Notes: generated from the sequence alone by a model not told the origin. A DNA stretch of 64,000 bases from Nitrospira sp. (GCA_024998625.1 JACOEL010000021.1:114-64113); one strand, 5' to 3'. Positions 8,522-44,802 are shown, counted from the first letter of the stretch. Translations and numbers: made by a program.

Positions 8522-9319
8522 TTACGACAGGCCCGGCAGCGCCTGATACCAGCCGTTGGCTTGGGCGAGCATGATGGGACGGTCAAAGAGGGTACTGATG
8601 TGGTCGTTGCACAGGAGTGCAGATTTCCGACTGTCGGCCACAACTTTCCCTCCTTTGAGAAAGATCACTCGATCGATCTCCGGCGGAATTTCGTGCAGAT
8701 GGTGGGTGACGAGGACGACGGTCTTGCCCTTGTGAATTTGCGCGCGCACGAGGTCTAAGTATTGGAAGCAGGATTTGAGATCGAGCCCGCTGGTCGGTTC
8801 ATCCAGGACAAGAACCGGCGGGTCATAAACCAAAGCTCGCCCAAGAAGAAACCGCCGCTGCTCCCCTGTCGAGAGATGCCCGAAGACACGCGTGGCGAAC
8901 GATTCAATGCCTAGCTCCCGCATCACCTCATCGGCCCGGCCTACCTGGTCTCGCGTAAACGCCTGATGGTCGTAGGTGTCGTTGCTGGCGTAGAAACCTG
9001 AGAGGACGACGGTGCGCCCCTCGGCACAGATCAGGTAGTCCCGCTGAAGGTCGTAGGAAACGATCCCGAGTTTCTTGCGCACATCCCAGACATTCCAGCA
9101 TTCCTTACCGAAGAGCCGCATGCGCGTCTCATCCAACGCAAGGGGATGGACTTCACCCGTTAACACCTTGAGTAGGGTCGACTTGCCCGCCCCGTTGGGA
9201 CCGACTATGGCGGCATGTTCTCCCCCCTGGAGGACGAAGGAGAAGTCAGAGAAAACGAGGCTGTCGCCCCGGTAGACCGTGGCATGTTGAATGTCGAGAA
9301 TGGGAGGAGGGAGCGTCAT
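8522..9319 (-). CDS. ABC ATP-binding protein (ModF/YlmA-like), no adjacent permease
   Basis: GPNGAGKST, LSTGEQRR, LDEPT, VTHH. Confidence 0.85.
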   Translation of the reverse strand: MTLPPPILDIQHATVYRGDSLVFSDFSFVLQGGEHAAIVGPNGAGKSTLLKVLTGEVHPLALDETRMRLFGKECWNVWDVRKKLGIVSYDLQRDYLICAEGRTVVLSGFYASNDTYDHQAFTRDQVGRADEVMRELGIESFATRVFGHLSTGEQRRFLLGRALVYDPPVLVLDEPTSGLDLKSCFQYLDLVRAQIHKGKTVVLVTHHLHEIPPEIDRVIFLKGGKVVADSRKSALLCNDHISTLFDRPIMLAQANGWYQALPGLS

Positions 9320-9361: not shown

Positions 9362-9832
9362 TCAAAACAATCCTGGCCGCATACCGCCGATGGTCTTCCC
9401 AGCCCGGCGAGACTGTTCGAGACCGGCCCGTGCCAGTGCATCCACCCGTTCGTTCTCCGGGTGACCGTTGTGCCCCCGCACCCAGTGCCATTGCAGCTTG
9501 TGGCCGGAGGCGAGCGTGTCGAGACGACGCCACAAATCCTCATTCTTCACCGGCTCCTTGCCGGCGGTTTTCCACCCGCGCCGCTTCCAGCTATGAATCC
9601 ACTCACTGATACCCTTTTGCACGTACTGCGAATCGGTGTAGACACGCGCCTCCACCGGCTGCGTGAGCGACTGCAACGCCTCAATGACGGCGAGCAGTTC
9701 CATGCGGTTGTTTGTCGTGGCGGGATCTCCGCCGCACATTTCCGTTTCGGCGTTGTCTATGCGCAGTAGAGCCCCCCAGCCACCAGGTCCTGGATTTCCG
9801 CTGCAGGCTCCGTCGGTATAAATTTCGATCAT
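9362..9832 (-). CDS. rnhA: Ribonuclease HI
   Basis: [44 protein letters not shown]. Confidence 0.97.
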
Positions 9833-9944
9833 CGGCTCACAGTCCTCTTTCGTTCATCATCAAGTATAACGAACGCCCCCTACCCGCCAATCAAACACGC
9901 GAGGTAAACCGAAGACGACTCGGCGTCACAGGATCAGGCTTGAT

Positions 9945-11081
9945 CTATGCGTTTGGTTTCTTACTCACCGGAGCAGCACCATACGGTGAAGAACCCGGAA
10001 TCTTTGGCGTCGCCGTCTGCACGTCAGCGTTTTGCGCACGATGCAAGAGTGCCTGATCCATCAGCACCAGGGCCATCATGGCTTCAGCAATCGGCGTGGC
10101 CCGGATACCGACGCAAGGATCGTGACGCCCATTGGTTTCGACGGTCACCGGGTTGCCTTGCTTGTCGATGGAACGTCGCGGAATACGGATGCTTGAGGTC
10201 GGCTTGATGGCGATGGTCACGACCACATCCTGCCCGGTGGAAATACCGCCGAGAATGCCGCCGGCATGATTCGTCACAAACCCTTCAGGCGTCAGTTCAT
10301 CGCCATGCTCCGAACCCCGCTGCGCGACCGAAGCGAACCCTGCGCCGATCTCCACCGCCTTGACCGCATTGATGCTCATCATGGCGCCGGCCAGGTCAGC
10401 ATCCAGCTTGGCATAGACCGGGGCGCCCCACCCGACCGGCACCTGCTCGGCCACGGTGGTAATCTTTGCGCCCACGGAATCGCCAGCCTTCCGCAACTCG
10501 TCCATGAACGATTCAAGCCTCTCTACCACCTCGGCGTTCGCCGAAAAGAATGGATTGGTGTCCACCGTTTCCCAGCTCTGAAAGGGAGCTTCGATCGGCC
10601 CGAGTTGGCTGAGGTAGCCACGGATGACAACCCCGTGCTTTTCCTGCAACCACTTCCTGGCAATCGCCGCCGCGGCCACTCGCACGGCCGTTTCCCGCGC
10701 CGAGGATCGCCCCCCGCCGCGATGGTCGCGGATCCCGTACTTCTGCCAATAGGTGTAGTCGGCGTGGCCCGGTCGAAAGGTGTCGATGAGGTTGCCGTAA
10801 TCACGGCTGCGCTGGTCTTCGTTCCGGATCAAAAGGGCGATGGGCGTACCGGTCGTCTTGCCCTCGAACACCCCGGAAAGGATTTCAACGGTATCGGATT
10901 CCTGCCGCTGCGTGACATGGCGTGAGGTGCCCGGCTTGCGCCGGTCGAGATCCCGCTGAATGTCTTCGGCGGATAGCGCTAGGCCAGGCGGACACCCATC
11001 CACCACGCAGCCGATCGCCGGTCCGTGACTTTCGCCGAACGAAGTGACGGTGAAAACTCGGCCCAACGTATTGCCGGCCAT
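9945..11081 (-). CDS. aroC: Chorismate synthase
   Basis: [27 protein letters not shown]. Confidence 0.97.
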
Positions 11082-11099
11082 GGGTTGGATGACTCCTGC

Positions 11100-12863
11100 C
11101 TACTCGACGAGGTCCAACTTGATGCGCAACTCCTTCAGCTGATCGGCACTCACACCGGAAGGCGCCTCGGTGAGCGGACATTGCGCGCGTTGCGTCTTGG
11201 GGAAGGCGATGACATCCCGAATCGAATCGGCACCACCCAGCAGCATGATCAACCGGTCGAGGCCGAACGCAATGCCGCCGTGCGGAGGCGCGCCATACTC
11301 CAGTGCTTCGAGCAGGAAACCGAACTTGGCCTGCGCCTGTTCCTTGCCGATCCCTAACAGATCGAGAATCCGAAACTGGATGTCGCTGCGATGATTGCGA
11401 ATGCTGCCGCCGCCGATTTCGCTTCCATTCAGCACCATATCATAAGCCTTTGCCCTGGCCCGTAGAGGTTCCGTGTCGAGGAATGGCAGATCTTCATCCA
11501 TCGGCGCGGCAAAAGGGTTGTGCATGAAAATATAGCGCTTCTCTTCCGGCGAATAGTCCAACAAGGGAAACTCCGTCACCCATAAAGGCCTCCAGGCCGT
11601 TTTGTCGATGAGATTCAGTTCCTCACCGAGCAACAGACGTATCCGGCCCAAGACATCGTGGACGATGCCGGGCTTGTCCGCGCCGAAAAGCACCAGATCG
11701 CCGGGCTTCGCTTCCGGCAAGGTCTCGGCAAAGGCCTTGGCATCGAGGAATTTGGCGATCACCGATTCCAACTGGCCGTCCCCGGTGACTTTCAACCAAG
11801 CCAGGCCTTTGGCTCCAAAACTTTTCGCCGTTTCACCGAGCGCGTCGATACGGCTCCGCGCAATGGAGGCTCCACCGGACACGATCAGCGCCTTGACGAG
11901 TCCGCCCTTGGTCGCCGCCTCTTTGAACACTTTGAATTCGCTCTTCGCGGCAAACGCCGTGACATCATGCAAGGGCATGTCGAAGCGAAGGTCCGGCTTA
12001 TCCGAACCGTAGCGCCCCATAGCGTCGGCATAGGTCATCCGGGGAAAGGGCGTAGGCAATTGCACTCCGCCGGCATCCTTGAACACCGAGACAATCATCC
12101 GTTCCATGAGCGACATGACCTGCTCACGATCCACAAACGACATTTCGAGATCGATCTGGGTAAATTCCGGCTGACGGTCGTTACGAAGGTCTTCGTCGCG
12201 GAAGCAACGGGCGATCTGGTAATACCGATCCACACCGCTCACCATCAACACCTGCTTGAACAGCTGCGGCGACTGCGGCAGCGCATAAAACATCCCCGGG
12301 TTCACGCGACTGGGTACCAGATAATCACGAGCGCCTTCCGGCGTACTTTTGGTCAATACGGGCGTTTCCACTTCCAGAAACTGCTCCGCATTCAAGAAGG
12401 CCCGCACCGCCTGCATGATCCCATGACGCAACCCCAGCAACCGCTGCATCCTCGGCCGCCTGAGATCCAGATAGCGATACTTCAATCGAAGAGACTCGGT
12501 GATCTCAATATCGTCCTCAATCATGAAGGGCGGTGTCTTGGCTTCGTTGAGAATCTCAACGGCATCCACGAACACTTCGATCTCACCGGTGGGAAGGTTC
12601 GGATTCTTGGACTCATCCGGTCTGGCCATCACCTGTCCGGTGACCGTCACGACACATTCGCTCCGCAGGGTATGCGCCGCCTGATGGACCGCTGCATTCC
12701 GCTCGGCGTTGAATACCACTTGCGTCAACCCTGTTCGATCGCGCAGGTCGATGAACAGCACCATGCCGTGATCCCGGCGACGTTGCACCCATCCGTTCAA
12801 CACCACTTGCTGACCGACTTGCGCCTTGGTCAATTCCCCACACCGATGGGTCCTGATCTTCAT
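11100..12863 (-). CDS. aspS: Aspartate-tRNA ligase, likely non-discriminating (His in RRRDHG)
   Basis: [40 protein letters not shown]; GAD insert. Confidence 0.97.
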
Positions 12864-14203: not shown

Positions 14204-15760
14204 TTATTCCCATTCGATTGTTGAGGGTGGCTTGGAACTGATGTCGTAGACGACTCGATTCACGCCCTTCACTTCGTTGATAATCCGGCTCGACATCTTC
14301 CCCAGCACCTCATTCGGGATTTTGGCCCAGTCGGCGGTCATGCCATCGAGGCTCGTGACCGCACGAATCGCAATGACATACTCGTACGTCCGCTGGTCAC
14401 CCATGACACCGACCGTCCGGATCGGCAGCAGAACCGCGAAGGCCTGCCAGATCTCCCGATACAGGCCGGCGGCGCGAATTTCCTGATCGACGATCGTTTC
14501 CGCCCCGCGCAAAATCGCCAACCGTTCCTTGGTGACGGCGCCGAGTACGCGGATCGCCAGGCCGGGACCGGGAAAGGGTTGCCGCCAGATAATCTCATCC
14601 GGCAGGCCGAGCTCCTGACCCAAGACCCGGACTTCGTCCTTAAACAATTCGCGCAGGGGCTCGACCAGCTTCAACTTCATTCTGGTCGGCAATCCCCCGA
14701 CGTTATGATGCGTTTTGATCGTCGCCGAGGGGCCTTTGAAGCTCACGCTTTCGATGACATCGGGATACAACGTGCCTTGCACGAGATATTTGATGCCCTT
14801 CAGCTTTTTGGACTCGACTTCAAAATTCTTAATGAAGAGACGTCCGATAATCTTTCGCTTCCGCTCCGGATCGGTCACGTTCTTCAACCCGGTGAGGAAC
14901 TGGCTCGTGCGATCGAGAATCCGCATATTCAGATGCAGTTGCGACGCGAAGGTCTTCTCGACTTGATCGCGTTCGCCGGCACGCAACACGCCATTGTCGA
15001 CGAAAATGCAGGTCAGCTGATCGCCGACCGCGCGGTGCGTAAGCGCGGCCGCCACAGAGGAATCTACCCCGCCGCTTAAGGCACAGATCACCCGCTCGCG
15101 CCCGACTTGTTGCCTAATCTGTTCCACGGCTGTTTCAACATAGGAGCGCATGGTCCAAGTCGGCTTGCAGCCACAGATATCGTAGACAAAGTTCTTGATG
15201 ATCGTGGCGCCCTCGACGGTATGCGCCACTTCCGGATGAAACTGAAGACAGTAGACGCGCTGCCTGGCGTCGTGCCGCTTCATTGCGGCGATGGGAGAAT
15301 TGTCCGTGTGGGCGATGGAGCGGAACCCCGGCGGCATCCGTTCGATGCGATCCCCGTGCGACATCCACACAACGGTCGGGCCACGAGTCCCGACTCCCTT
15401 GAACAGATCCGACCGGTCATCGAGGGTCAGTTCAGCCCGCCCGAACTCGCGGTGCGGAGCCTTCTCCACTTCGCCGCCCTGCAGATGCGTCACCAGCTGC
15501 ATTCCGTAGCAGATCCCGAGAATGGGAATGCCCTGTTCGAAGAGTTGCTTCGGGACCGAAGGAGCCTTCTTGTCGTACACGCTCGATGGTCCACCGGATA
15601 GCACGATGCCCTTCGGCCGGTAGGCCAATATCGTCGCGAGCGGCACGGTGCACGGCAGGATCTGCGAATAGACCTGCGCCTCACGGATACGCCGCGCGAT
15701 TAACTGTGTGTACTGAGATCCGAAATCAAGAACGAGGATTCTATCGTGCCAGAGTTCCAT
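14204..15760 (-). CDS. guaA: GMP synthase (glutamine-hydrolysing)
   Basis: [45 protein letters not shown]. Confidence 0.98.
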
Positions 15761-36720: not shown

Positions 36721-37158
36721 CTATGGCTGAATCTTGAAGAGATTCTGGCACCAGCGCACGGCAGCTAGGACCTCATCAAACCGATCAAAGTCGACTGTCT
36801 TGTGGAACGTAATGGCGACATACTCATCATTCATATCCGTCTGCTCCGAGAATCCCGCCTTGAGGAGGGCCGGCCGTTTCTTGGACACCGCAGGACCCAG
36901 GAAATACTTGGCCTGTTTCGCCACTTCATCGGTTCCCAGATCTTCAGTTGTCCCATCGCACATCAGACTCTTCACATCGTCCATGGCGATTCCGTGCTGA
37001 CAGAGAAGTTGTCCATCAGACCGCACCTCCAACAACCACCCATCTTCCCCCAGATCAAGCGTCAGGGCTCCACCGGGCTCCAGCTCATAAAATTGCGGAA
37101 CCGTGCTCACTAGCCGTGTTCGAGCCTGTTCCCATGATGGAAGCGCGACGATATTCAT
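36721..37158 (-). CDS. Hypothetical protein
   Basis: 145 aa, start overlaps the stop of the upstream TPR gene. Confidence 0.75.
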   Translation of the reverse strand: MNIVALPSWEQARTRLVSTVPQFYELEPGGALTLDLGEDGWLLEVRSDGQLLCQHGIAMDDVKSLMCDGTTEDLGTDEVAKQAKYFLGPAVSKKRPALLKAGFSEQTDMNDEYVAITFHKTVDFDRFDEVLAAVRWCQNLFKIQP

Positions 37159-37979
37159 GCGCGTGACTCCCGCGGCTGGGGAGTCGGGTCTTCGGCGTCT
37201 AAACGAGCACGAAGCCGTTCGAGGCGAGTCACATTCTCGGCCAATTTAGGGAGATCGTACTTACGGTCCATACGCACAACCTGCTCCAGTAACTGAATGG
37301 CCATCTGCAGCTGACCCAAATCTTCGTAGCATTGGGCGAGAACGTAACGGGCACCGCCTGTACGCAGTTCATCTCGACTCCGTTCCGCGATTGATTGACT
37401 GGTATGGCAACAAGCGATGGCGTCATCATAGCGCTTTTGGATGGCAAAGGTCCGCCCCATCATCCGCCAGGCATCGGCGACGCCTCCTTGATTGTTGAGA
37501 CGGCGCATGAGCACCAGCGACTGCTCATAGTACCGTAACGCCTCTTCGAACTGGCCTGTTTCACGCGCCACCAAGCCGAGATCGGAAAACAGCACCGCCT
37601 TTCCCAGCTCGTCATGTACCCGCGTCATGATATCGAGCGCCTCAAGGTAATAGGCTCTCGCACGATCCCACTCCCCGGCGTCAGCACGGAGATTCCCCAG
37701 ATTGGCCAGAGTCGTCCCAATGCCCTTCTCGTCTCCCAAAACCTTCTGCAACTCCAGCACTTCCTGATAATAGCTCTGAGCCGACTCCCGGCGACCACTG
37801 ACCGCGCAAATGTTGCCAAGATTGCCCAACGTCGCGCTCAAAGCGCGATGATCACCGGTCAATCGATCACATTCCAGGGCCTTTGCATAACAAGCGTAGG
37901 CATCCGTATAGTGCCCGCGCGCAAAATGCTCGTTGCCCTGACGGTTGAGTTTCTCTGAGAGTCCGTTTCGAAGGGCCAT
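37155..37979 (-). CDS. Tetratricopeptide-repeat protein
   Basis: ~40-aa repeats (LGNLGNI, LANLGNL, FSDLGLV; A..YY...L). Confidence 0.9.
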   Translation of the reverse strand: MALRNGLSEKLNRQGNEHFARGHYTDAYACYAKALECDRLTGDHRALSATLGNLGNICAVSGRRESAQSYYQEVLELQKVLGDEKGIGTTLANLGNLRADAGEWDRARAYYLEALDIMTRVHDELGKAVLFSDLGLVARETGQFEEALRYYEQSLVLMRRLNNQGGVADAWRMMGRTFAIQKRYDDAIACCHTSQSIAERSRDELRTGGARYVLAQCYEDLGQLQMAIQLLEQVVRMDRKYDLPKLAENVTRLERLRARLDAEDPTPQPRESRA

Positions 37980-37985
37980 TGTTTC

Positions 37986-38582
37986 TTACACCTGAAGCGC
38001 CTGCTCAACAGCCTGCTTGGCTCCGAATACGATGCTAGCGCCATCGCCCACAAGAATCGAGTCGAAGTTATATTTCAACAAACGCCGAAGCCCGTCTCTA
38101 GCCTTCGTGATATCGCCATATTTTTCTGGAGCCAGGAGGCTCAAGCTTCCCGCCGGTTTGCCAATTAACGCATCGCCGACGATCAACACGCCCTTCCCCT
38201 GCTGAATGTACAATGCCGACTCACCCGGAGATTTTTGATCACTCAGGTGAATGACCCAAATACCGCCGGGCAACAACTCGCCGTCCTTGAATGTCTTGGA
38301 CGGCGTCACATCCATCTGCGCGACATCGGCCTCAGGCACCTGTAGCTGGCAACGAAAATCAGCCTGGTACGTCGCCGCCTCACGGACATGATCACGGTTG
38401 GTGAGAATGATGTAATCCAGGGCGCCCTGGCGCCGAACAAATGTGTGGGCGGCGGTCGTCATGGGCGGCGGATCAACCAGAATCTTATGTTCCCCCACAT
38501 TAAGAAACAGGCCGTTAAAATCGAGCTGCTTGTCTTCTGAAAACCAGGACCATTGCCAAATTCCGGGAAGGAGTTGTTTCAC
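37986..38582 (-). CDS. Metallo-beta-lactamase-fold hydrolase-like protein
   Basis: LVDPP, LTNRDH.R, SPG, VGDAL, LVGDG (degenerate metal motifs). Confidence 0.8.
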   Translation of the reverse strand: MKQLLPGIWQWSWFSEDKQLDFNGLFLNVGEHKILVDPPPMTTAAHTFVRRQGALDYIILTNRDHVREAATYQADFRCQLQVPEADVAQMDVTPSKTFKDGELLPGGIWVIHLSDQKSPGESALYIQQGKGVLIVGDALIGKPAGSLSLLAPEKYGDITKARDGLRRLLKYNFDSILVGDGASIVFGAKQAVEQALQV

Positions 38583-38606
38583 AGATATCGCCTCACGTGG
38601 ATGGGA

Positions 38607-38846
38607 TTACAACGCTGCCACCGCATCCTGGAGGGTCTTCGTGACCTTCGCACAGATGCCGGCTTCGCTGGGAAGATCGATGATATCGTCTTCCGAGAGG
38701 GTAATGAACTTCCGATTCGGCCCCTTCGTGAGGGAAATAAGGAACATGCTGTTTGTGGGCTTCGTCGGAATCACCACCTGAACGGTCTGATCAATACCCT
38801 GCACGACTTCCAGAAACTTCTGCTTTCCCTCTTCCCATTCGTCCAT
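38607..38846 (-). CDS. Small hypothetical protein (79 aa)
   Basis: AAAGAGG RBS, tight packing in operon. Confidence 0.7.
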   Translation of the reverse strand: MDEWEEGKQKFLEVVQGIDQTVQVVIPTKPTNSMFLISLTKGPNRKFITLSEDDIIDLPSEAGICAKVTKTLQDAVAAL

Positions 38847-38865
38847 GAATGATCCTCTTTTCCTG

Positions 38866-39411
38866 CTACATGGCTCCTGCGCCGGCTGGAGTCGAAGCTG
38901 CCAACAGCTTTTCCACTTCCTGGATGATGACCTCGGCACCTGCCAATTCCATATTGCCCACCCGCTGCCACCTGATCACACCGCGCTGATCGATGACATA
39001 CACATTGGGAATGAACTTCCCGCCTCCATACAGTTTGTCGGTGGTCTTATTCGGATCGAGCAAATAGGGGTAGGTTACCTTCACGGGAAAGGCACTCAAG
39101 AATTCGCCCACGCCCCGTTTGGAATCCCCCGACGAATTGACCCCGACGACGGCCACATTTTTCCCAGCCATCGCCTCATGGACCTTTTGCAGATTGGTTC
39201 CTTGGGTCATACAGGGGTCACAAATATGAAACAGCCCGAGGACCACCACTTTCCCCTTTAACTGCTCAAGCGAAACCGCATCGCCTGTTACGGACGTCAA
39301 CGAGAAGGCCGGCGCCGGCTCGCCGACCTTAAAAAACCCGGCGGCGACTACAAGGTGGGCAGCCCACAGGTGGACGAATATGATCGCAACCGCTATGAGA
39401 ACTCGCTTCAT
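38866..39411 (-). CDS. Exported TlpA/AhpC-TSA thioredoxin-like protein
   Basis: Signal peptide, G..APAFSL, CxxC (CDPC), P.VYVID..G.IR. Confidence 0.85.
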   Translation of the reverse strand: MKRVLIAVAIIFVHLWAAHLVVAAGFFKVGEPAPAFSLTSVTGDAVSLEQLKGKVVVLGLFHICDPCMTQGTNLQKVHEAMAGKNVAVVGVNSSGDSKRGVGEFLSAFPVKVTYPYLLDPNKTTDKLYGGGKFIPNVYVIDQRGVIRWQRVGNMELAGAEVIIQEVEKLLAASTPAGAGAM

Positions 39412-39601: not shown

Positions 39602-40897
39602 TCAACCGGAGCTCTGCAACCACCGCACGACTGCTTCACGCATCCGGACAGAAAGAATCCATTTGGCGATAGTCCGATGAAACGGCTTCAAACAAGTGGC
39701 CAGGATACGAAGTCGTCGTTGAAACCGGAACCAGGGCAACGAACGGGTGAGCACTTCTGCTTCCGCACGACAGAGCGCGACCCCAAGTTTCCACCGCTCA
39801 AGCCAGGAATCCTTGAGAGTCATGTACAGAGCCTCCGCACAATCTTCATCAATCCCATAACGAGGATTCTTCAGCAGCAGCTTAGGCATCTTTCGAACGA
39901 GGACGGGGATGTCGCCATCTGCCTCGATCTCCTGAAGTATCGTCCGTGGGACTGCGGTATCGAACAGGCTGTGAGCCATCGCCAGGCCGAGCAGGACCAA
40001 CCGTCGACATCTCCACTCGCCTGCCTGAAACAACACACGACTCCAATCTAACGCCGGCCGCCGACGCACGAGCTCCGCCACATCGCACACCCACTTCAAC
40101 TGCTCCCACGCATGTTTTGCCCCATGCACGCAGAGAAGGATCAACAGATCCTCAGGGCAGAGCCCCATCACCGACTTTGTTGGTAAGTGAACGGGTTTCA
40201 GTCTTCCCCAAAACGCGCTCCGATCAAGCCGAAATCCGAAATGTCGGCGAACCATCACCGACTGAAGATCGACCGCAACGATGCCGTTTCGTCTTTGGAA
40301 AAAGTGATACGGCTCCCCTGACTCCTCCCTGCCACCCATGTCCTGGCTGGTCAGTTGATACCCCTGAGACCATAAGACTTTCCGAGCTTGGGGAATCGCT
40401 CCCTGCTCAACAATCAAATCAATATCTGCACATTCCCGTAAACCTAGGTCGCCATACGCCGTCTGTGCAAGCGTGACGCCTTTAAAGGGAATCGCCATCA
40501 CTCCCTTCGCTGCCAACGCGTCGAGTAGCGACACGAGTTCTTTCGCCAGCAACGTATTGAGAAGCGCATTCGCCTGATTGTGACGGCGGAAGGCTTCGTG
40601 GATAGCCGAAGGCACCGCAGCAGGACAAATCGCAACCAGATTGCGGTACACCAGTGGCGCCACTCCATGGGCTCTGGACAGCCGCCAGACCAGTCCCCAA
40701 TCAATTCCATCACAGGCCAGATCCGCCACTTCGACTCGAACAAACTCATCCACCGTCGTTCGCGCACAGAGTACGAGTAAGCGCCCCTCCGCACGCATGA
40801 GGGACAAACCTGGCGCCGGTGTTGTCCCCTTACGCGAAATACCTCCCAGGCGAGAGGAGTTCCATTGTGCGATGGTGGACCCAGGACGCCGCCCCAT
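39602..40897 (-). CDS. Nucleotidyltransferase (NTP_transf_5-like, lasso-cluster type)
   Basis: IPFKG..LA..AYGD.GLR...DIDLIV, VDLQ, LCVHGAKH.W..LKW.CD. Confidence 0.88.
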   Translation of the reverse strand: MGRRPGSTIAQWNSSRLGGISRKGTTPAPGLSLMRAEGRLLVLCARTTVDEFVRVEVADLACDGIDWGLVWRLSRAHGVAPLVYRNLVAICPAAVPSAIHEAFRRHNQANALLNTLLAKELVSLLDALAAKGVMAIPFKGVTLAQTAYGDLGLRECADIDLIVEQGAIPQARKVLWSQGYQLTSQDMGGREESGEPYHFFQRRNGIVAVDLQSVMVRRHFGFRLDRSAFWGRLKPVHLPTKSVMGLCPEDLLILLCVHGAKHAWEQLKWVCDVAELVRRRPALDWSRVLFQAGEWRCRRLVLLGLAMAHSLFDTAVPRTILQEIEADGDIPVLVRKMPKLLLKNPRYGIDEDCAEALYMTLKDSWLERWKLGVALCRAEAEVLTRSLPWFRFQRRLRILATCLKPFHRTIAKWILSVRMREAVVRWLQSSG

Positions 40898-40898
40898 G

Positions 40899-41939
40899 TC
40901 AGTTCTCTCTCCTTCCTTGCCGCATCCCCAGAAGAGGTGTTACCAGCCATGGCAACTCCAAGACATCGCGTCCGAAGTGGAGTCGGTAACAGTCTGCCTG
41001 CTCGACCAATCGCACAAGCGCTTGAAACTCCAGGCGCGCCACCTCGGCGTCATACACCAGCAAGGAATGCGGAAGAATCATTTCCAATGCTACCTTCTTG
41101 GACAAGGGCTCCAGGCAACTATGCGAGGAATTGACCACCTCGGGAAAGAGGATCACGCTTGGCTCGCAAGGCTGACCTAATGGCCCCGGATACATATCCT
41201 CGACATTGAAATAGCGCTTGGGGACACCTGCATGCAGGACAGATGGCGGAGCCTCTCGCAATTCGGGAAAGAACGATACGGTGTGATCGGTCACGTTGAT
41301 CTTCAGCGGATACGGGAGGATCTCCACGCGTGTGCCGCTGATCCGAAAAAATGGGTGGTCATCGGAGAGGTAACGATACCCTGATCTCAGTAGTGATAGG
41401 AACGAGGTGGTTTTCCCTTGCCCACTGAAACCAGGAATCAGCACCCCCCGCCCCATGTGCTCCAGGGCGGTGGCATGAAACGTATACAATCCTCGCCGCT
41501 TCAGTAGTTCCGTCATGGCGAAATGGACAAAACTCACTCGGATATCCGGTGCCATAGTCTCCGGTTTCACCAAATACCCCTGGACAGATGGCGAAGCCCC
41601 ATCGATGACGACCAGGCCTTCTTCATGAAAGTCAGCAATCAACAGTCCCTGTTCTGAGTAGATGTCGCACAGCCATGTCGTCCGTCGATCAGGACCAATC
41701 ACGAGGCCAGAACCGCTGTACAACAGTTTCGCCGAACCAGAAACCCTAACAGGAACATCCCCTCGTCGCTCGACCGCGTCGAATTCCATCAGCATCGGTT
41801 GAGCCACAGTGGTGGCGAGTTGAAAGTGATGGAATAACGCCTCAACGGAATGTGCCAGCTCGGACGAATTGGTGGTGAATTTCATCTCTATGCCATGGAC
41901 AGAGAGTAGAAGTTCTTTCGTTATCGACGTCATGAACAT
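40899..41939 (-). CDS. HPr-kinase-like P-loop kinase (lasso-cluster type)
   Basis: FHATAL, GVLIPGFSGQGKTT (Walker A), YLSDD. Confidence 0.85.
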   Translation of the reverse strand: MFMTSITKELLLSVHGIEMKFTTNSSELAHSVEALFHHFQLATTVAQPMLMEFDAVERRGDVPVRVSGSAKLLYSGSGLVIGPDRRTTWLCDIYSEQGLLIADFHEEGLVVIDGASPSVQGYLVKPETMAPDIRVSFVHFAMTELLKRRGLYTFHATALEHMGRGVLIPGFSGQGKTTSFLSLLRSGYRYLSDDHPFFRISGTRVEILPYPLKINVTDHTVSFFPELREAPPSVLHAGVPKRYFNVEDMYPGPLGQPCEPSVILFPEVVNSSHSCLEPLSKKVALEMILPHSLLVYDAEVARLEFQALVRLVEQADCYRLHFGRDVLELPWLVTPLLGMRQGRREN

Positions 41940-41995
41940 TCACGCGTCTCCTTTTCAACCTTTCGTCCACCGCCATCGCCTTACCGCTCTAGAAC

Positions 41996-42026
41996 GAGCT
42001 GGCCGGTCTGATTCACCGGCCAGCTC
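41996..42026. terminator. Perfect 12-bp stem-loop downstream of the precursor gene
   Basis: GAGCTGGCCGGT-CTGATTC-ACCGGCCAGCTC; no U tract on the minus strand. Confidence 0.65.
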
Positions 42027-42053
42027 CGCTGCTCTCACGGGAGCATTCGACAA

Positions 42054-42167
42054 CTAGCTGATTCTTTGATCCACCACGCGGGACAGCTGAATAGCCGTCA
42101 CGTCGCGCAGCAACTCATGCTTCACGAGCGCCGGCTTGACGTACACGATTTTCTTCTGTTGCTCCAT
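42054..42167 (-). CDS. RiPP precursor, lasso-type leader: MEQQKKIVYVKPALVKHELLRDVTAIQLSRVVDQRIS
   Basis: Translated by hand; AAAGGAGGTGA RBS overlapping the RRE stop; YxxPxL(x9)T leader spacing; sits between RRE and kinase. Confidence 0.88.
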   Translation of the reverse strand: MEQQKKIVYVKPALVKHELLRDVTAIQLSRVVDQRIS

Positions 42168-42173
42168 TCTGAC

Positions 42174-42491
42174 TCACCTCCTTTCAATCTGAAGTAATCC
42201 CTCCTGCTCCAAATGCACGATCAAATCCAACACATCGTCCTGAGCCTGCTGTGCAGACACGTCAAATCTGGCACAGATTGCTGAGTGAATCTGCCGCAAC
42301 GACTGCTCCCCTCTGCACAAATCCCAAATGGTTGATCCGACGACATTGAGCGTGTAATAGCGGCCGGAGTTCAGATTCAACAGCACACTTTCACCATCGA
42401 GAACCGTGCTGTGGACCTGTTCATCCTGCCTGGGAAATACTTCGGATAATTCGAACTGACGCTCACTCCACAGATGCACAGTGGCAGGCAT
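42174..42491 (-). CDS. PqqD-family RiPP recognition element (lasso B1/E protein)
   Basis: CAGGAG RBS; VLLNLNSGRYYTLNVVGSTIWDLC.G..SL.QI...ICARFDV....A..DV..LI..L.QEGLL. Confidence 0.92.
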   Translation of the reverse strand: MPATVHLWSERQFELSEVFPRQDEQVHSTVLDGESVLLNLNSGRYYTLNVVGSTIWDLCRGEQSLRQIHSAICARFDVSAQQAQDDVLDLIVHLEQEGLLQIERR

Positions 42492-42863
42492 ATAGATGCT
42501 CCTGGTTCAGATTGTTGGGGATTTGTGACTGCTCCGATAGCACCATTCGTTCTAAAACTGATTCTTCCTCGAAGTCTTGGTCTCCCCACAAGCAAGACGT
42601 GTACATCACTGCAAGACAAGGGCGAAACTATCGTCATCACGTCCGTTTCTCTATCCCCAGTGAGATTGGGCTCCACCTCCCTTTGGGGGATCCGGATTTT
42701 GCTTTTATGGAAACGGATGAAAAAAGCGTGCAGATGAGGCCGCTGACGAGTTTCAAAGCCGAACTTGTCAGCTTGATTCACGCAGACGCACAGGAAAGAC
42801 TCAATTCTCTCAGGCCCGCCATGTCCAGCCGACCCCAAAAGACGGTAATGTGCAGAGGAGATC

Positions 42864-43304
42864 TCAGGAGATGCGAGATGATTGAGTACTTGAAGAAAGC
42901 AGGGATTGGGGGAAGGTAACCGTCACCGTAAACGATTGCCAGTGGGAGGACGGCTCAAGAAACTCATGACCATGCAGCACCAGCCATGCGTGTCCCTCCA
43001 GCTGCTGATTGAGCTTCATCACTCCACATTTGAATTGAACGGGGAGGCCGGCACGGCGGGCGAAAAAAAACAGCGCTAACGCTCGAGGAAAACAATTTCC
43101 CTTCGGATTGTATGGAAACAGCGCAAGCCACCGATCCACATAATAGGCCACATTTTCCATCGCGTGCTCATCAGGACCGGCTGAAATCTCACATGATAAC
43201 CAGCCGAGCAATCGTCTGAGACTCGTCAGGCGGGACACGATGCGAACTCCAACGACCACAACACCAGTGGCAACGATCAGTCGATATTTCCGAACCGACG
43301 ACAT
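42864..43304 (-). CDS. Lasso-peptide B2 leader protease (transglutaminase-like Cys protease)
   Basis: NCFPRALAL (Cys), V.FKCGV, GHAWL (His) followed by Glu. Confidence 0.9.
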   Translation of the reverse strand: MSSVRKYRLIVATGVVVVGVRIVSRLTSLRRLLGWLSCEISAGPDEHAMENVAYYVDRWLALFPYNPKGNCFPRALALFFFARRAGLPVQFKCGVMKLNQQLEGHAWLVLHGHEFLEPSSHWQSFTVTVTFPQSLLSSSTQSSRIS

Positions 43305-43371: not shown

Positions 43372-44802
43372 TCAGCGTGGAGCTTCAAAGAGCCCAAGTT
43401 GAAGTTCTTCTGCCCTGGTAAAGGAGATAGGATATTGTTCGGTAAAGCAAGCATCGCAGTAGTGCCCCGGAATGCCGGGAGCCGCCTTCACCATGCCGTC
43501 CAGGCTCAAATAGGCGAGGCTATCCGCGGTGATGTATTTACGAATCTCTTCGGTGGTGTGACTGGACGCGATCAATTCCTTCTTGGTCGGGGTATCGATA
43601 CCATAAAAACAGGGCGACACGATCGGCGGAGAACTAATCCGCATATGTACTTCTTTGGCTCCGGCATGACGCAGCATCTTGACGATTTTTCGGCTAGTCG
43701 TTCCTCGAACCAACGAATCGTCTACTACGACGACGCGTTTCCCTTCGAGGACTTCGGGAACGGCATTGAGTTTTACCTTCACACCAAAGTGGCGAATTGA
43801 CTGTTCAGGCTCGATGAAGGTGCGACCCACATAATGATTTCGAATCAGCCCCGTCTCGAACGGAAACCCAGATCCTTCGGAATACCCCAACGCCGCCGGC
43901 ACCCCGGAATCCGGCACGGGAATCACGATGTCCGCATCAACCCGCGATTCTTTCGCCAATTGTCGCCCGAATGCTTTCCGGATGGAATAGACGGCTTTGC
44001 CTCCAAAAATGCGGCTGTCAGGACGGGCAAAGTAGACATATTCAAACACACACATGGCCGGCTTGGTTTGAGCAAATGGCTTATAACTGGTGACGCCCTG
44101 ATGATCCAGTACCACCAACTCTCCCGGTTCGATCTCCCTTACATATTCGGCATCCAACAGATCGAACGCGCAACTTTCGGAGGCCACTATCCAGGCGTCA
44201 CGAAACCGTCCCAGGCACAGGGGGCGGAATCCATAGGGATCGCGCGCGGCGACAATGCCCTGATCGGTCATCAGAACTACTGAAAATGCACCGCGAACCT
44301 GGGTGAGCGAATCGATGACCCGGTCCAGCAGCGTATCCGCCCGCGAATGCGCGATGAGATGGATTATGACTTCCGTATCGGACGTCGATTGAAAAATAGC
44401 GCCATAGGCTTCCAGTTCACTGCGAAGCATGGTGGCATTGATCAAATTCCCATTGTGCGCCACGGCCAAGTTACCGAAGGCAAAATTGACGCTCAAGGGT
44501 TGCACATTCTTGAGGCCCGCCCCGCCCGCGGTGGAATAGCGGTTGTGCCCAATCGCCATCGTACCGGGCAAACGCGCCAAGGCCTGTTGCGAAAAGATAT
44601 CGGCGACAAGGCCCTGGCCCTTTTCGACATAAAACTGTTCGCCGTCGTTGGAGACAATGCCGGAAGCTTCCTGTCCGCGATGTTGCAAGGCATAGAGGCC
44701 GAGGTAGGCGAGGTTCGAGGCCTCTTTATGGCCGTAGATTCCGAACACGGCGCATTCGTCGTGGAACTTATCGGGAGAAATCAGCGGTAATTCGTTGGCC
44801 AT
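43372..44802 (-). CDS. purF: Amidophosphoribosyltransferase
   Basis: [45 protein letters not shown]. Confidence 0.98.

Follow-up and report, generated by a model that had tools for sequence, protein, structure and literature searches.

The DNA analysed here is a 64,000-nucleotide stretch from Nitrospira sp. (GCA_024998625.1, JACOEL010000021.1:114-64113), referred to below as the window. Downstream of purF it carries a gene cluster that was interpreted as the lineage-I (N. defluvii-group) form of a Nitrospira-wide pathway for a peptide that is made by ribosomes and modified after translation (a RiPP). The pathway would be lasso-derived and cyclase-free, and its product a linear 12-mer decorated on Ser4; a probability of about 0.6 was assigned to this reading. 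Relatives carry extra genes at the same locus (ABC, ATP-grasp and FA_hydroxylase genes), of which the window has the reduced form. A sequence-only reading of the same DNA had reported five same-strand genes in the order B2 peptidase, RiPP recognition element (RRE), precursor, kinase and nucleotidyltransferase, and all five were located as minus-strand open reading frames (ORFs) at the positions listed here.

42864-43304, minus strand: B2 peptidase gene, 146 aa (PF13471, NF033537)
42492-42863, minus strand: non-coding spacer between the B2 and PqqD genes (alignment to two other reduced-type loci)
42174-42491, minus strand: PqqD-family RRE gene, lasso B1-like, 105 aa (PF05402)
42054-42167, minus strand: precursor gene, 37 aa, MEQQKKIVYVKPALVKHELLRDVTAIQLSRVVDQRIS (conserved homologous peptides)
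41996-42026, minus strand: GC-rich RNA hairpin (shuffle z-score and homologous hairpins)
40899-41939, minus strand: HPr-kinase/PEPCK-superfamily P-loop kinase gene, ScmC-like, 346 aa (motifs, AF2 fold)
39602-40897, minus strand: NTP_transf_5 nucleotidyltransferase-fold gene (NTP5), 431 aa (PF14907)

Leader handling and modifying enzymes

The B2 protein, which is of the transglutaminase-like cysteine protease type, matched PF13471 (E 6e-19) and scored 53.5 bits against NF033537 (lasso_biosyn_B2), above the cut-off of 33. Its GxCxPR (Cys71) and GHAWL (His105) motifs were kept in 47 homologues. The PqqD protein matched PF05402 (E 1e-19), and its GRYYxLN core was retained in 67 homologues; the top NCBIfam model was lasso_PqqD_Bac, the lasso B1 chaperone, at 63 bits and under the cut-off of 80. 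The window genes show the pairing of a B1 RRE with a B2 cysteine protease by which lasso clusters are recognised.

The kinase gave weak matches to Hpr_kinase_C, HprK_rel_A and HprK_rel_B, all of them under cut-off, and its homologues carry the PF27840 (ScmC) label in precomputed annotation tables. Three motifs, LIPGxSGxGKTT, HATALE and RYLSDD, were invariant across 70 kinase homologues; in these sequences the Walker-A motif (in the window, LIPGFSGQGKTT) and the acidic RYLSDD are those expected of the superfamily that unites HPr kinase with phosphoenolpyruvate carboxykinase (PEPCK). The catalytic domain of HprK/P belongs to the same P-loop superfamily as PEPCK. The AlphaFold2 (AF2) model of the kinase (pLDDT 90) matched ATP-dependent PEPCK best, over the whole length of the model (E 2.5e-9, TM ~0.5), and among PDB sequences HprK was matched over the P-loop region only (E 2e-3). 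The protein is predicted to be a precursor serine kinase.

NTP5 was assigned to PF14907 with a score of 224.9 bits (E 2e-66) against a gathering cut-off of 31.2, and its catalytic motif, G140...D158xD160, was conserved among homologues. In the AF2 model (pLDDT 87) a Pol-beta-type core was found that lies near MenT1, FKRP, LnuA and ANT(2''), at E ~1e-4; the FKRP structure in this search is a complex with CDP-ribitol and a sugar acceptor. FKRP is a ribitol-phosphate transferase, and LnuA and ANT(2'') are O-nucleotidylyltransferases. The modelled fold supports a role for NTP5 as a transferase onto a hydroxyl or phosphate acceptor. A PDB sequence search with NTP5 was uninformative.

The annotated start of NTP5 deserves a comment. 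Many homologues are 398 aa long, and the first 26 residues of the model had pLDDT values below 50 (window 40798-40897). The true start may be Met34, which gives a protein of 398 aa, and not the annotated ATG, which adjoins the stop codon of the kinase gene.

Precursor peptides and non-coding elements

The precursor consists of a leader, M1-A25 (42093-42167), and a core, IQLSRVVDQRIS (42057-42092), followed by a stop codon at 42054-42056; its AGGAGG ribosome-binding site (RBS) overlaps the end of the PqqD gene. Lasso B1 and B2 proteins recognise leaders by a rule that asks for YxxPxL at positions -17 to -12 and, at -2, for Thr or in rare cases Ile or Val (PMC10368454). The YxxPxL motif and the Thr(-2) that mark lasso precursors are both present in the window leader, with Tyr(-17) at Y9, Pro(-14) at P12, Leu(-12) at L14 and Thr(-2) at T24, and the predicted cut lies after A25.

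A precursor family was assembled by a pattern search of related loci, which yielded 105 peptides, 98 of them unique. The small ORF is a real gene: homologous peptides were found at the same position in 76 loci, always adjoining PqqD. In 105/105 peptides a Tyr stands exactly 17 residues ahead of the end of a D[IV]T[AG] motif, and the family leaders carry Pro(-14), Thr(-2) and, at -12, Leu or a residue like it.

The cores were compared by lineage and by cluster type, modules 1 and 2 being the two cluster types of other Nitrospira whose gene content is given in the next section. Lineage-I cores are 9-14 aa long and start with a conserved [ILQT]-x-x-S-[RC]-[VIF]. Of the 98 unique cores, 97 had a hydroxyl residue (Ser, Thr or Tyr) at position 3 or 4: Ser4 in 22/22 lineage-I cores, the window included, Ser or Thr at position 3 in 38/39 module-1 cores, and Tyr3 or Ser3 in module-2 cores. 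The sequence-only reading had placed the modification on a C-terminal phosphoserine. The window core does end in Ser, as did 6/22 lineage-I cores and 11/98 overall; because a C-terminal Ser is so scarce, a paeninodin-type phosphoserine at that position cannot be the conserved modification, and the earlier proposal gave way to the conserved hydroxyl at position 3 or 4, which corresponds to the Ser3 target of BsfK discussed below.

The same comparison bears on ring formation. No Asp or Glu occurred anywhere in 8/22 lineage-I cores (14/98 overall), and an acidic residue at core positions 7-9 was found in only 9/22. Across lineage-I cores the acidic residue at 7-9 and the threadable tail of a lasso peptide are not general features, despite Asp8 in the window core. 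This excludes a lasso macrolactam as the conserved product.

Module-1 cores are hypervariable, with Cys pairs, Gly/Asn-rich tails, His/Arg-rich tails and GNW repeats; module-2 cores are also variable, and the number of precursor copies per locus varies from 1 to 3. In these putative peptides the combination of a constant leader, hypervariable cores and varying copy number is a hallmark of RiPP precursors.

Two further observations on the precursors were made. Seven lineage-I relatives (L012, L013, L014, L015, L019, L021 and L023) have two tandem precursor genes that differ in their core tails, and the window has one. The long Gly/Asn-rich module-1 cores of L027, L057, L058, L062, L067 and L074 end in F[QSH]D[IV][TAL]R, a sequence that echoes the RDIT motif of the leader and may be a second recognition or cleavage site.

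Downstream of the precursor gene lies a hairpin with a 12-bp GC-rich stem (GAGCUGGCCGGU / ACCGGCCAGCUC) that begins 28 nt past the precursor stop codon and had a fold z of -3.5 against shuffles. At nearly every locus, whichever of the three module types it has, a homologous hairpin comes after the last precursor gene; the stems of L018, L019 and L023 are changed in sequence yet still pair, and in some loci such changes involve both arms. By analogy with other RiPP operons, the hairpin probably serves to hold precursor mRNA in excess over enzyme mRNA, by attenuation or by stabilising the message.

The spacer between the B2 and PqqD genes was 316-370 bp long across the reduced-type loci examined. 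When the window was compared with two other such loci the spacer was poorly conserved, save for one block of ~45 nt at ~42647-42689 on the minus strand (consensus CCTCACTGGTGATAGAGAAGCC). The spacer is probably the promoter region of the operon that runs from PqqD through the precursor and kinase genes to NTP5, and the conserved block may be a promoter or operator. A scan of the cluster for sigma-70 promoters and terminators gave nothing above chance, and a sigma-54-like match seen by eye in the spacers of relatives was dropped, since its spacing was wrong. A hidden spacer gene, such as an ABC or ATP-grasp remnant or a longer PqqD, was also considered. An ORF of 153 aa (42377-42838) falls within the poorly conserved spacer and shares part of its length with PqqD in a different frame; it was treated as spurious, and a hidden gene was rejected on these grounds.

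Cyclase absence, conservation and related clusters

According to the sequence-only reading there was no lasso cyclase in the 64 kb, and this was upheld. The sole ORF with a PP-loop SGGxDS motif is GuaA (GMP synthase; 14204-15760), and the window is therefore without a lasso cyclase. The absence was also conserved at homologous loci: no SGGxDS ORF of at least 300 aa was found in 1.02 Mb around the 76 loci (10 kb on each side), and no relative with an intact cyclase was seen among them.

The companion claim, that a transporter was lacking as well, stood for the cluster, which has no linked exporter; it did not stand for the whole window, which holds a lone ABC ATPase 30 kb away (8522-9319). Lack of the exporter is peculiar to lineage I, and most other Nitrospira have an ABC exporter adjacent to B2.

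To define conservation, species-representative genomes were scanned, which gave 75 loci, and the cluster components were mapped by tblastn. The kinase homologues were all from Nitrospira or Nitrospiraceae, at identities from 100% down to ~46%; the nearest named genome was Ca. Nitrospira defluvii (kinase 87%, PurF 99% identity). The window order, namely purF, B2, spacer, PqqD, precursor, kinase, NTP5 and redoxin gene, was found in 13 Nitrospira species representatives (L007-L009, L011-L015, L017, L019, L022, L023 and L047) and additionally in L005, L006 and one JGI contig (kinase only 61% identical).

Selection on the cluster was estimated from the ratio of nonsynonymous to synonymous substitution rates (dN/dS). 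Median values were 0.23 for B2, 0.18 for PqqD, 0.14 for the precursor, 0.11 for the kinase and 0.08 for NTP5, compared with 0.018 for purF and 0.04 for the redoxin gene. The five cluster genes thus evolve several-fold faster than the flanking housekeeping genes, yet are under clear purifying selection. Furthermore, the catalytic signatures of B2, the kinase and NTP5 were kept in every architecture. True decay looks different: in L073, L079 and L081 a kinase homologue is all that is left between purF and the redoxin gene, with a degenerate P-loop (LIAGHRGCGRTT) in L079 (927-2066). The pattern of conservation indicates that the window cluster is not a decayed lasso cluster.

Parts of the B2, PqqD, kinase and NTP5 genes are represented in contigs assembled from wastewater metatranscriptomes of closely related strains. 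As evidence of expression this is weak, since the depth of contigs measures expression poorly and DNA contamination is possible.

Elsewhere in Nitrospira the locus is larger. Module 1 comprises PqqD, one or two precursors, the kinase, NTP5, B2 and a fused ABC exporter. The genes of module 2 encode a 330-aa protein of unknown type, an ATP-grasp protein of the RimK type, a longer PqqD (152 aa), 1-3 precursors, a paralogue of the kinase and one or two FA_hydroxylases, and NTP5 may or may not be present; examples are L001 (5474-12080) and L050 (the same stretch as L003; 5167-12424), with cores such as QKYREKTSDK.... No description was found of module 2, in which a lasso-type leader is combined with a graspetide-like enzyme. 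The Nitrospira architectures are module 1 alone, B2 and ABC genes with module 2 (for example, strain KM1), and, in many genomes, both modules in tandem; tandem forms include L027, L034, L041, L044, L045, L049 and L062. Few in-cluster ORFs among the 76 loci were left unexplained (a GMC oxidoreductase, gluconate-dehydrogenase subunit 3 and PhoD).

The window-type kinases fell together with those of module 1 in a neighbour-joining tree, and the module-2 kinases made up its other branch. The window leader (...KPxLVKHELLRDVTA) also resembles module-1 leaders. Together these results indicate that the window cluster derives from module 1, without the exporter and with B2 located upstream.

The kinase profile recovered 279 clusters (at 50% identity) with E <1e-30, and two distant relatives were read in their genomic context. 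L083 has PqqD, a precursor with Ser3 (...HEPLLDVTA, then AQSLSASPKDR after the predicted cut), the kinase, B2, NTP5 and an ABC gene; its neighbours are radical-SAM, 2OG-oxygenase, ADI and FA_hydroxylase genes, and there is no Asn_synthase. L082 has PqqD, B2, the kinase and NTP5, with three precursors whose cores are of 6-9 residues (GNGTHPPVL, GNGTHPEG and GITPPP). These two cassettes show that the cyclase-free arrangement is not confined to one genus.

L082 also encodes an Asn_synthase-like protein (AsnB). In the region 9691-12340 its gene is divergent from the three precursor genes and lies beside the PqqD-B2-kinase-NTP5 cassette and a B12-radical-SAM gene. It was considered as a cyclase and rejected: the protein starts MCGILG, which marks it as a genuine glutamine amidotransferase rather than a lasso cyclase, and the adjoining 6-9-aa cores were reported to be without acidic residues. 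AsnB might amidate the peptide.

Proposed pathway, alternatives and context

The sequence-only reading had proposed that leader recognition, leader removal and kinase/nucleotidyltransferase tailoring were kept without macrolactam formation. The 76 cyclase-free loci, the acid-free cores, the purifying selection and the retained motifs all agree with it. Gene content, conservation, selection, the missing cyclase at the loci covered and the peptide statistics are observations; for the pathway itself we infer the target residue, the order of the steps and the chemistry of NTP5 as follows. The PqqD/B1 element would bind the 37-aa precursor through its YxxPxL...T leader, as the identity and exact spacing of the motif suggest. 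The HPr-kinase-like enzyme would then phosphorylate core Ser4 with the leader still attached, by analogy with BsfK. NTP5 could next extend the phosphate or hydroxyl, with a hexose as pseudomycoidin has it or with a nucleotidyl or phospho-alcohol group; this step is tentative. The B2 cysteine protease would cleave after Ala25, as the Thr(-2) and the conserved Cys and His suggest. The product would be the linear 12-residue IQL-S*-RVVDQRIS (peptide IQLSRVLDRTPA), with no macrolactam.

The closest characterised parallel is the bsf cluster of Bradymonas sediminis, which consists of A, B1, B2, C, D, K and N (Duan et al. 2023, PMC10368454). BsfK phosphorylates core Ser3, needs the leader and is stimulated by B1; it is <21% identical to the kinases that act on a C-terminal Ser, is strictly selective for position 3 and does not phosphorylate Tyr (PMC10368454). 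The two systems share a separate B1 RRE and B2 protease, an HPr-kinase-like K, a nucleotidyltransferase N and a YxxPxL leader motif at -17 to -12; the residue predicted as target here is Ser or Thr at core position 3 in relatives with module 1, and Ser4 in the window lineage. They differ in that C of bsf is a lasso cyclase and D an ABC exporter, and that the bsf core has Gly1...Asp8; none of these is a conserved feature of the window cluster. Furthermore, the -2 leader residue is Ile in bsf and Thr here; the kinase and NTP5 were likened to BsfK and BsfN by description.

Paeninodin- and pseudomycoidin-type clusters of Firmicutes (PadeK/ThcoK and PsmK/PsmN) likewise pair an HPr-kinase homologue with an enzyme of a nucleotidyltransferase family. 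The paeninodin-type kinase phosphorylates the C-terminal Ser of the linear, leader-bearing precursor, and the pseudomycoidin nucleotidyltransferase PsmN puts one or two hexoses on the phosphate (PMC8498205). The difference is that those kinases act on a C-terminal Ser, the clusters hold a cyclase and the products are threaded lassos. An HPr-kinase-like P-loop protein is also found with a PqqD chaperone in the families described by Haft, namely HprK-related kinase A/B (TIGR04352, TIGR04355) and SynChlorMet ScmC/ScmD (TIGR04249, TIGR04248; PF27840), but the window kinase scores far under the TIGR04352, TIGR04355 and TIGR04249 cut-offs. The SynChlorMet cassette is built round radical-SAM maturases, and these are absent here. 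A likeness to graspetide clusters is seen only in relatives, where KM1-type and tandem loci have a RimK-type ATP-grasp gene beside cores rich in Lys, Glu, Asp, Ser and Thr; the window cluster has no ATP-grasp gene. To our knowledge, graspetide pathways are normally without a lasso-type leader, B1 and B2, or a kinase and nucleotidyltransferase pair.

Several results weigh against the linear, Ser4-decorated product. The bsf analogy is imperfect, since lineage I has its Ser at position 4 and module 2 has Tyr3, and BsfK accepts position 3 only and no Tyr. The kinase fell short of the curated cut-off of each named family scanned, and reached just 54.8 of the 200 bits set as cut-off for TIGR04352, 48.4 of 200 for TIGR04355 and 14.6 of 125 for TIGR04249. 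The NTP5 fold matches are weak (E ~1e-4, TM 0.2-0.3 on the query) and do not indicate the donor substrate. No exporter was found within 10 kb on either side in lineage-I loci. For this one peptide an Ile1-Asp8 lactam is conceivable by sequence, and the absence of a cyclase covers the window and the 76 loci, the rest of the genome not having been searched. The strains behind the metatranscriptome contigs are relatives of the window's, and some of the contigs may stem from contaminating DNA. The pathway steps are predictions from sequence, structure models and analogy.

Four other explanations were weighed. In the first, the kinase would activate Ser3 or Ser4 for elimination to dehydroalanine, as in class III/IV lanthipeptides, perhaps with thioether formation to a Cys, and the phosphate would not appear in the product. 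Elimination after phosphorylation is an established route in RiPP biosynthesis (PMC10604976), and 23/39 module-1 cores hold a Cys a few residues past Ser3. However, any Cys at all was found in just 2/22 lineage-I cores and none in the window core, no lyase or cyclase domain was detected in the Pfam and NCBIfam scans, and in bsf, paeninodin and pseudomycoidin the phosphate persists or is decorated. We consider this explanation unlikely.

The second is that the cluster is a decaying remnant, in which the ABC exporter, ATP-grasp and FA_hydroxylase genes have been lost and the remainder makes no product. Larger clusters do exist at the same locus in relatives, lineage I has no exporter, and the kinase-only loci L073, L079 and L081, with the degenerate P-loop of L079, show how far loss can go. 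Against this, the five ORFs are intact in at least 13 species with dN/dS values of 0.08-0.23, the Cys/His, P-loop, DD and DxD motifs are conserved, the leader and Ser4 are invariant, the RBS and downstream hairpin are retained, and transcript-derived contigs cover the genes. Decay is distinctly unlikely on this evidence.

Thirdly, the locus could be a true lasso cluster whose cyclase lies elsewhere in the genome, the window core forming an Ile1-Asp8 macrolactam with a 4-residue tail. The leader, B1 and B2 are canonical lasso parts, Asp8 is suitably placed, and some lasso tailoring genes do sit outside their cluster (PMC8498205). These points are outweighed by the acid-free cores in 8/22 lineage-I peptides and the acidic residue at 7-9 in only 9/22, by core lengths of 9-14 aa that leave a tail too short for threading, and by the lack of a cyclase within 10 kb on either side of 76 loci, the distant relatives having cores of 6-9 aa. 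The first residue of a lasso core is usually Gly, Ala, Ser or Cys, whereas here it is Ile, Leu, Gln or Thr. A hidden lasso product is very improbable.

It is scarcely credible, finally, that the kinase and nucleotidyltransferase act on a non-peptide substrate tied to the purine and redox genes, with the small ORF incidental, since the fixed purF/redoxin position across the genus and the phosphonate gene family in which an uncharacterised PF14907 protein adjoins a kinase (PMC8942020) are set against a canonical lasso leader in 105/105 small ORFs that always lie beside PqqD, a B2 above its curated family cut-off, precursor copies of 1-3 with hypervariable cores behind a constant leader, and the same cassette away from purF in L082 and L083.

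If the cyclase-free pathway to a linear, decorated peptide is correct, a pathway with no lasso product at any point has taken over lasso-type B1/B2 recognition and cleavage. The cluster could prove to be a new RiPP class once its product is known. In such a class the kinase and nucleotidyltransferase pair, rather than a cyclase, would supply the defining chemistry: with leader parts borrowed from lasso systems, the pathway would yield linear peptides whose Ser, Thr or Tyr at core position 3 or 4 bears a phospho-linked glycosyl, nucleotidyl or comparable group. Essentially all Nitrospira would have the class at a single fixed chromosomal site, by vertical inheritance; we rate this wider claim at somewhat short of even odds. 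No description of a cyclase-free B1/B2 and kinase system, of a function for PF14907 or of RiPPs of Nitrospira was found in the searchable literature, a result that is suggestive only, because many subscription papers fall outside it.

Nitrospira are the main nitrite oxidisers and include the comammox bacteria. They control nitrite oxidation in wastewater plants and soils and are hard to grow, and their chemical ecology is almost unknown. The pathway would give the genus a genus-wide, diversifying peptide family. The hypervariable, exported cores in most lineages suggest competition or kin recognition, whereas the short, conserved lineage-I core (IQLSRV...), with no exporter, suggests a possibly intracellular or otherwise-exported role. 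The idea of an intracellular signal, put forward in the sequence-only reading, is weakened for the family as a whole by the B2-adjacent ABC exporters and the hypervariable cores of most other Nitrospira.

There would also be consequences beyond the genus. RRE-Finder returned thousands of lasso-type RREs without a cyclase (PMC7470986), and the pathway would give a wider meaning to such 'false positives' of lasso genome mining. It would provide the uncharacterised PF14907 enzymes and the ScmC-like kinases with a tractable peptide substrate that has a defined target residue. The window version, with five genes and a 12-residue core, is the smallest member and the easiest to reconstitute.

The upstream neighbours of the cluster are purF (43372-44802) and purL, and the downstream neighbour is the redoxin gene (38866-39411). 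The location beside purine biosynthesis had been mentioned in the sequence-only reading; the synteny proved to be fixed, and a functional link to purine synthesis beyond that synteny was not seen. A dip in GC content had also been reported. It exists but is slight, at 0.50-0.59 against a window mean of 0.578, and it reaches into purF. Since the locus is syntenic across the genus, the dip is no sign of foreign DNA, and horizontal transfer or a low-GC island was rejected. Downstream, the region 36721-39411 encodes the redoxin, a 79-aa ORF, a Lactamase_B_5 protein, a TPR protein and a 145-aa protein, and this synteny follows the cluster in every architecture.

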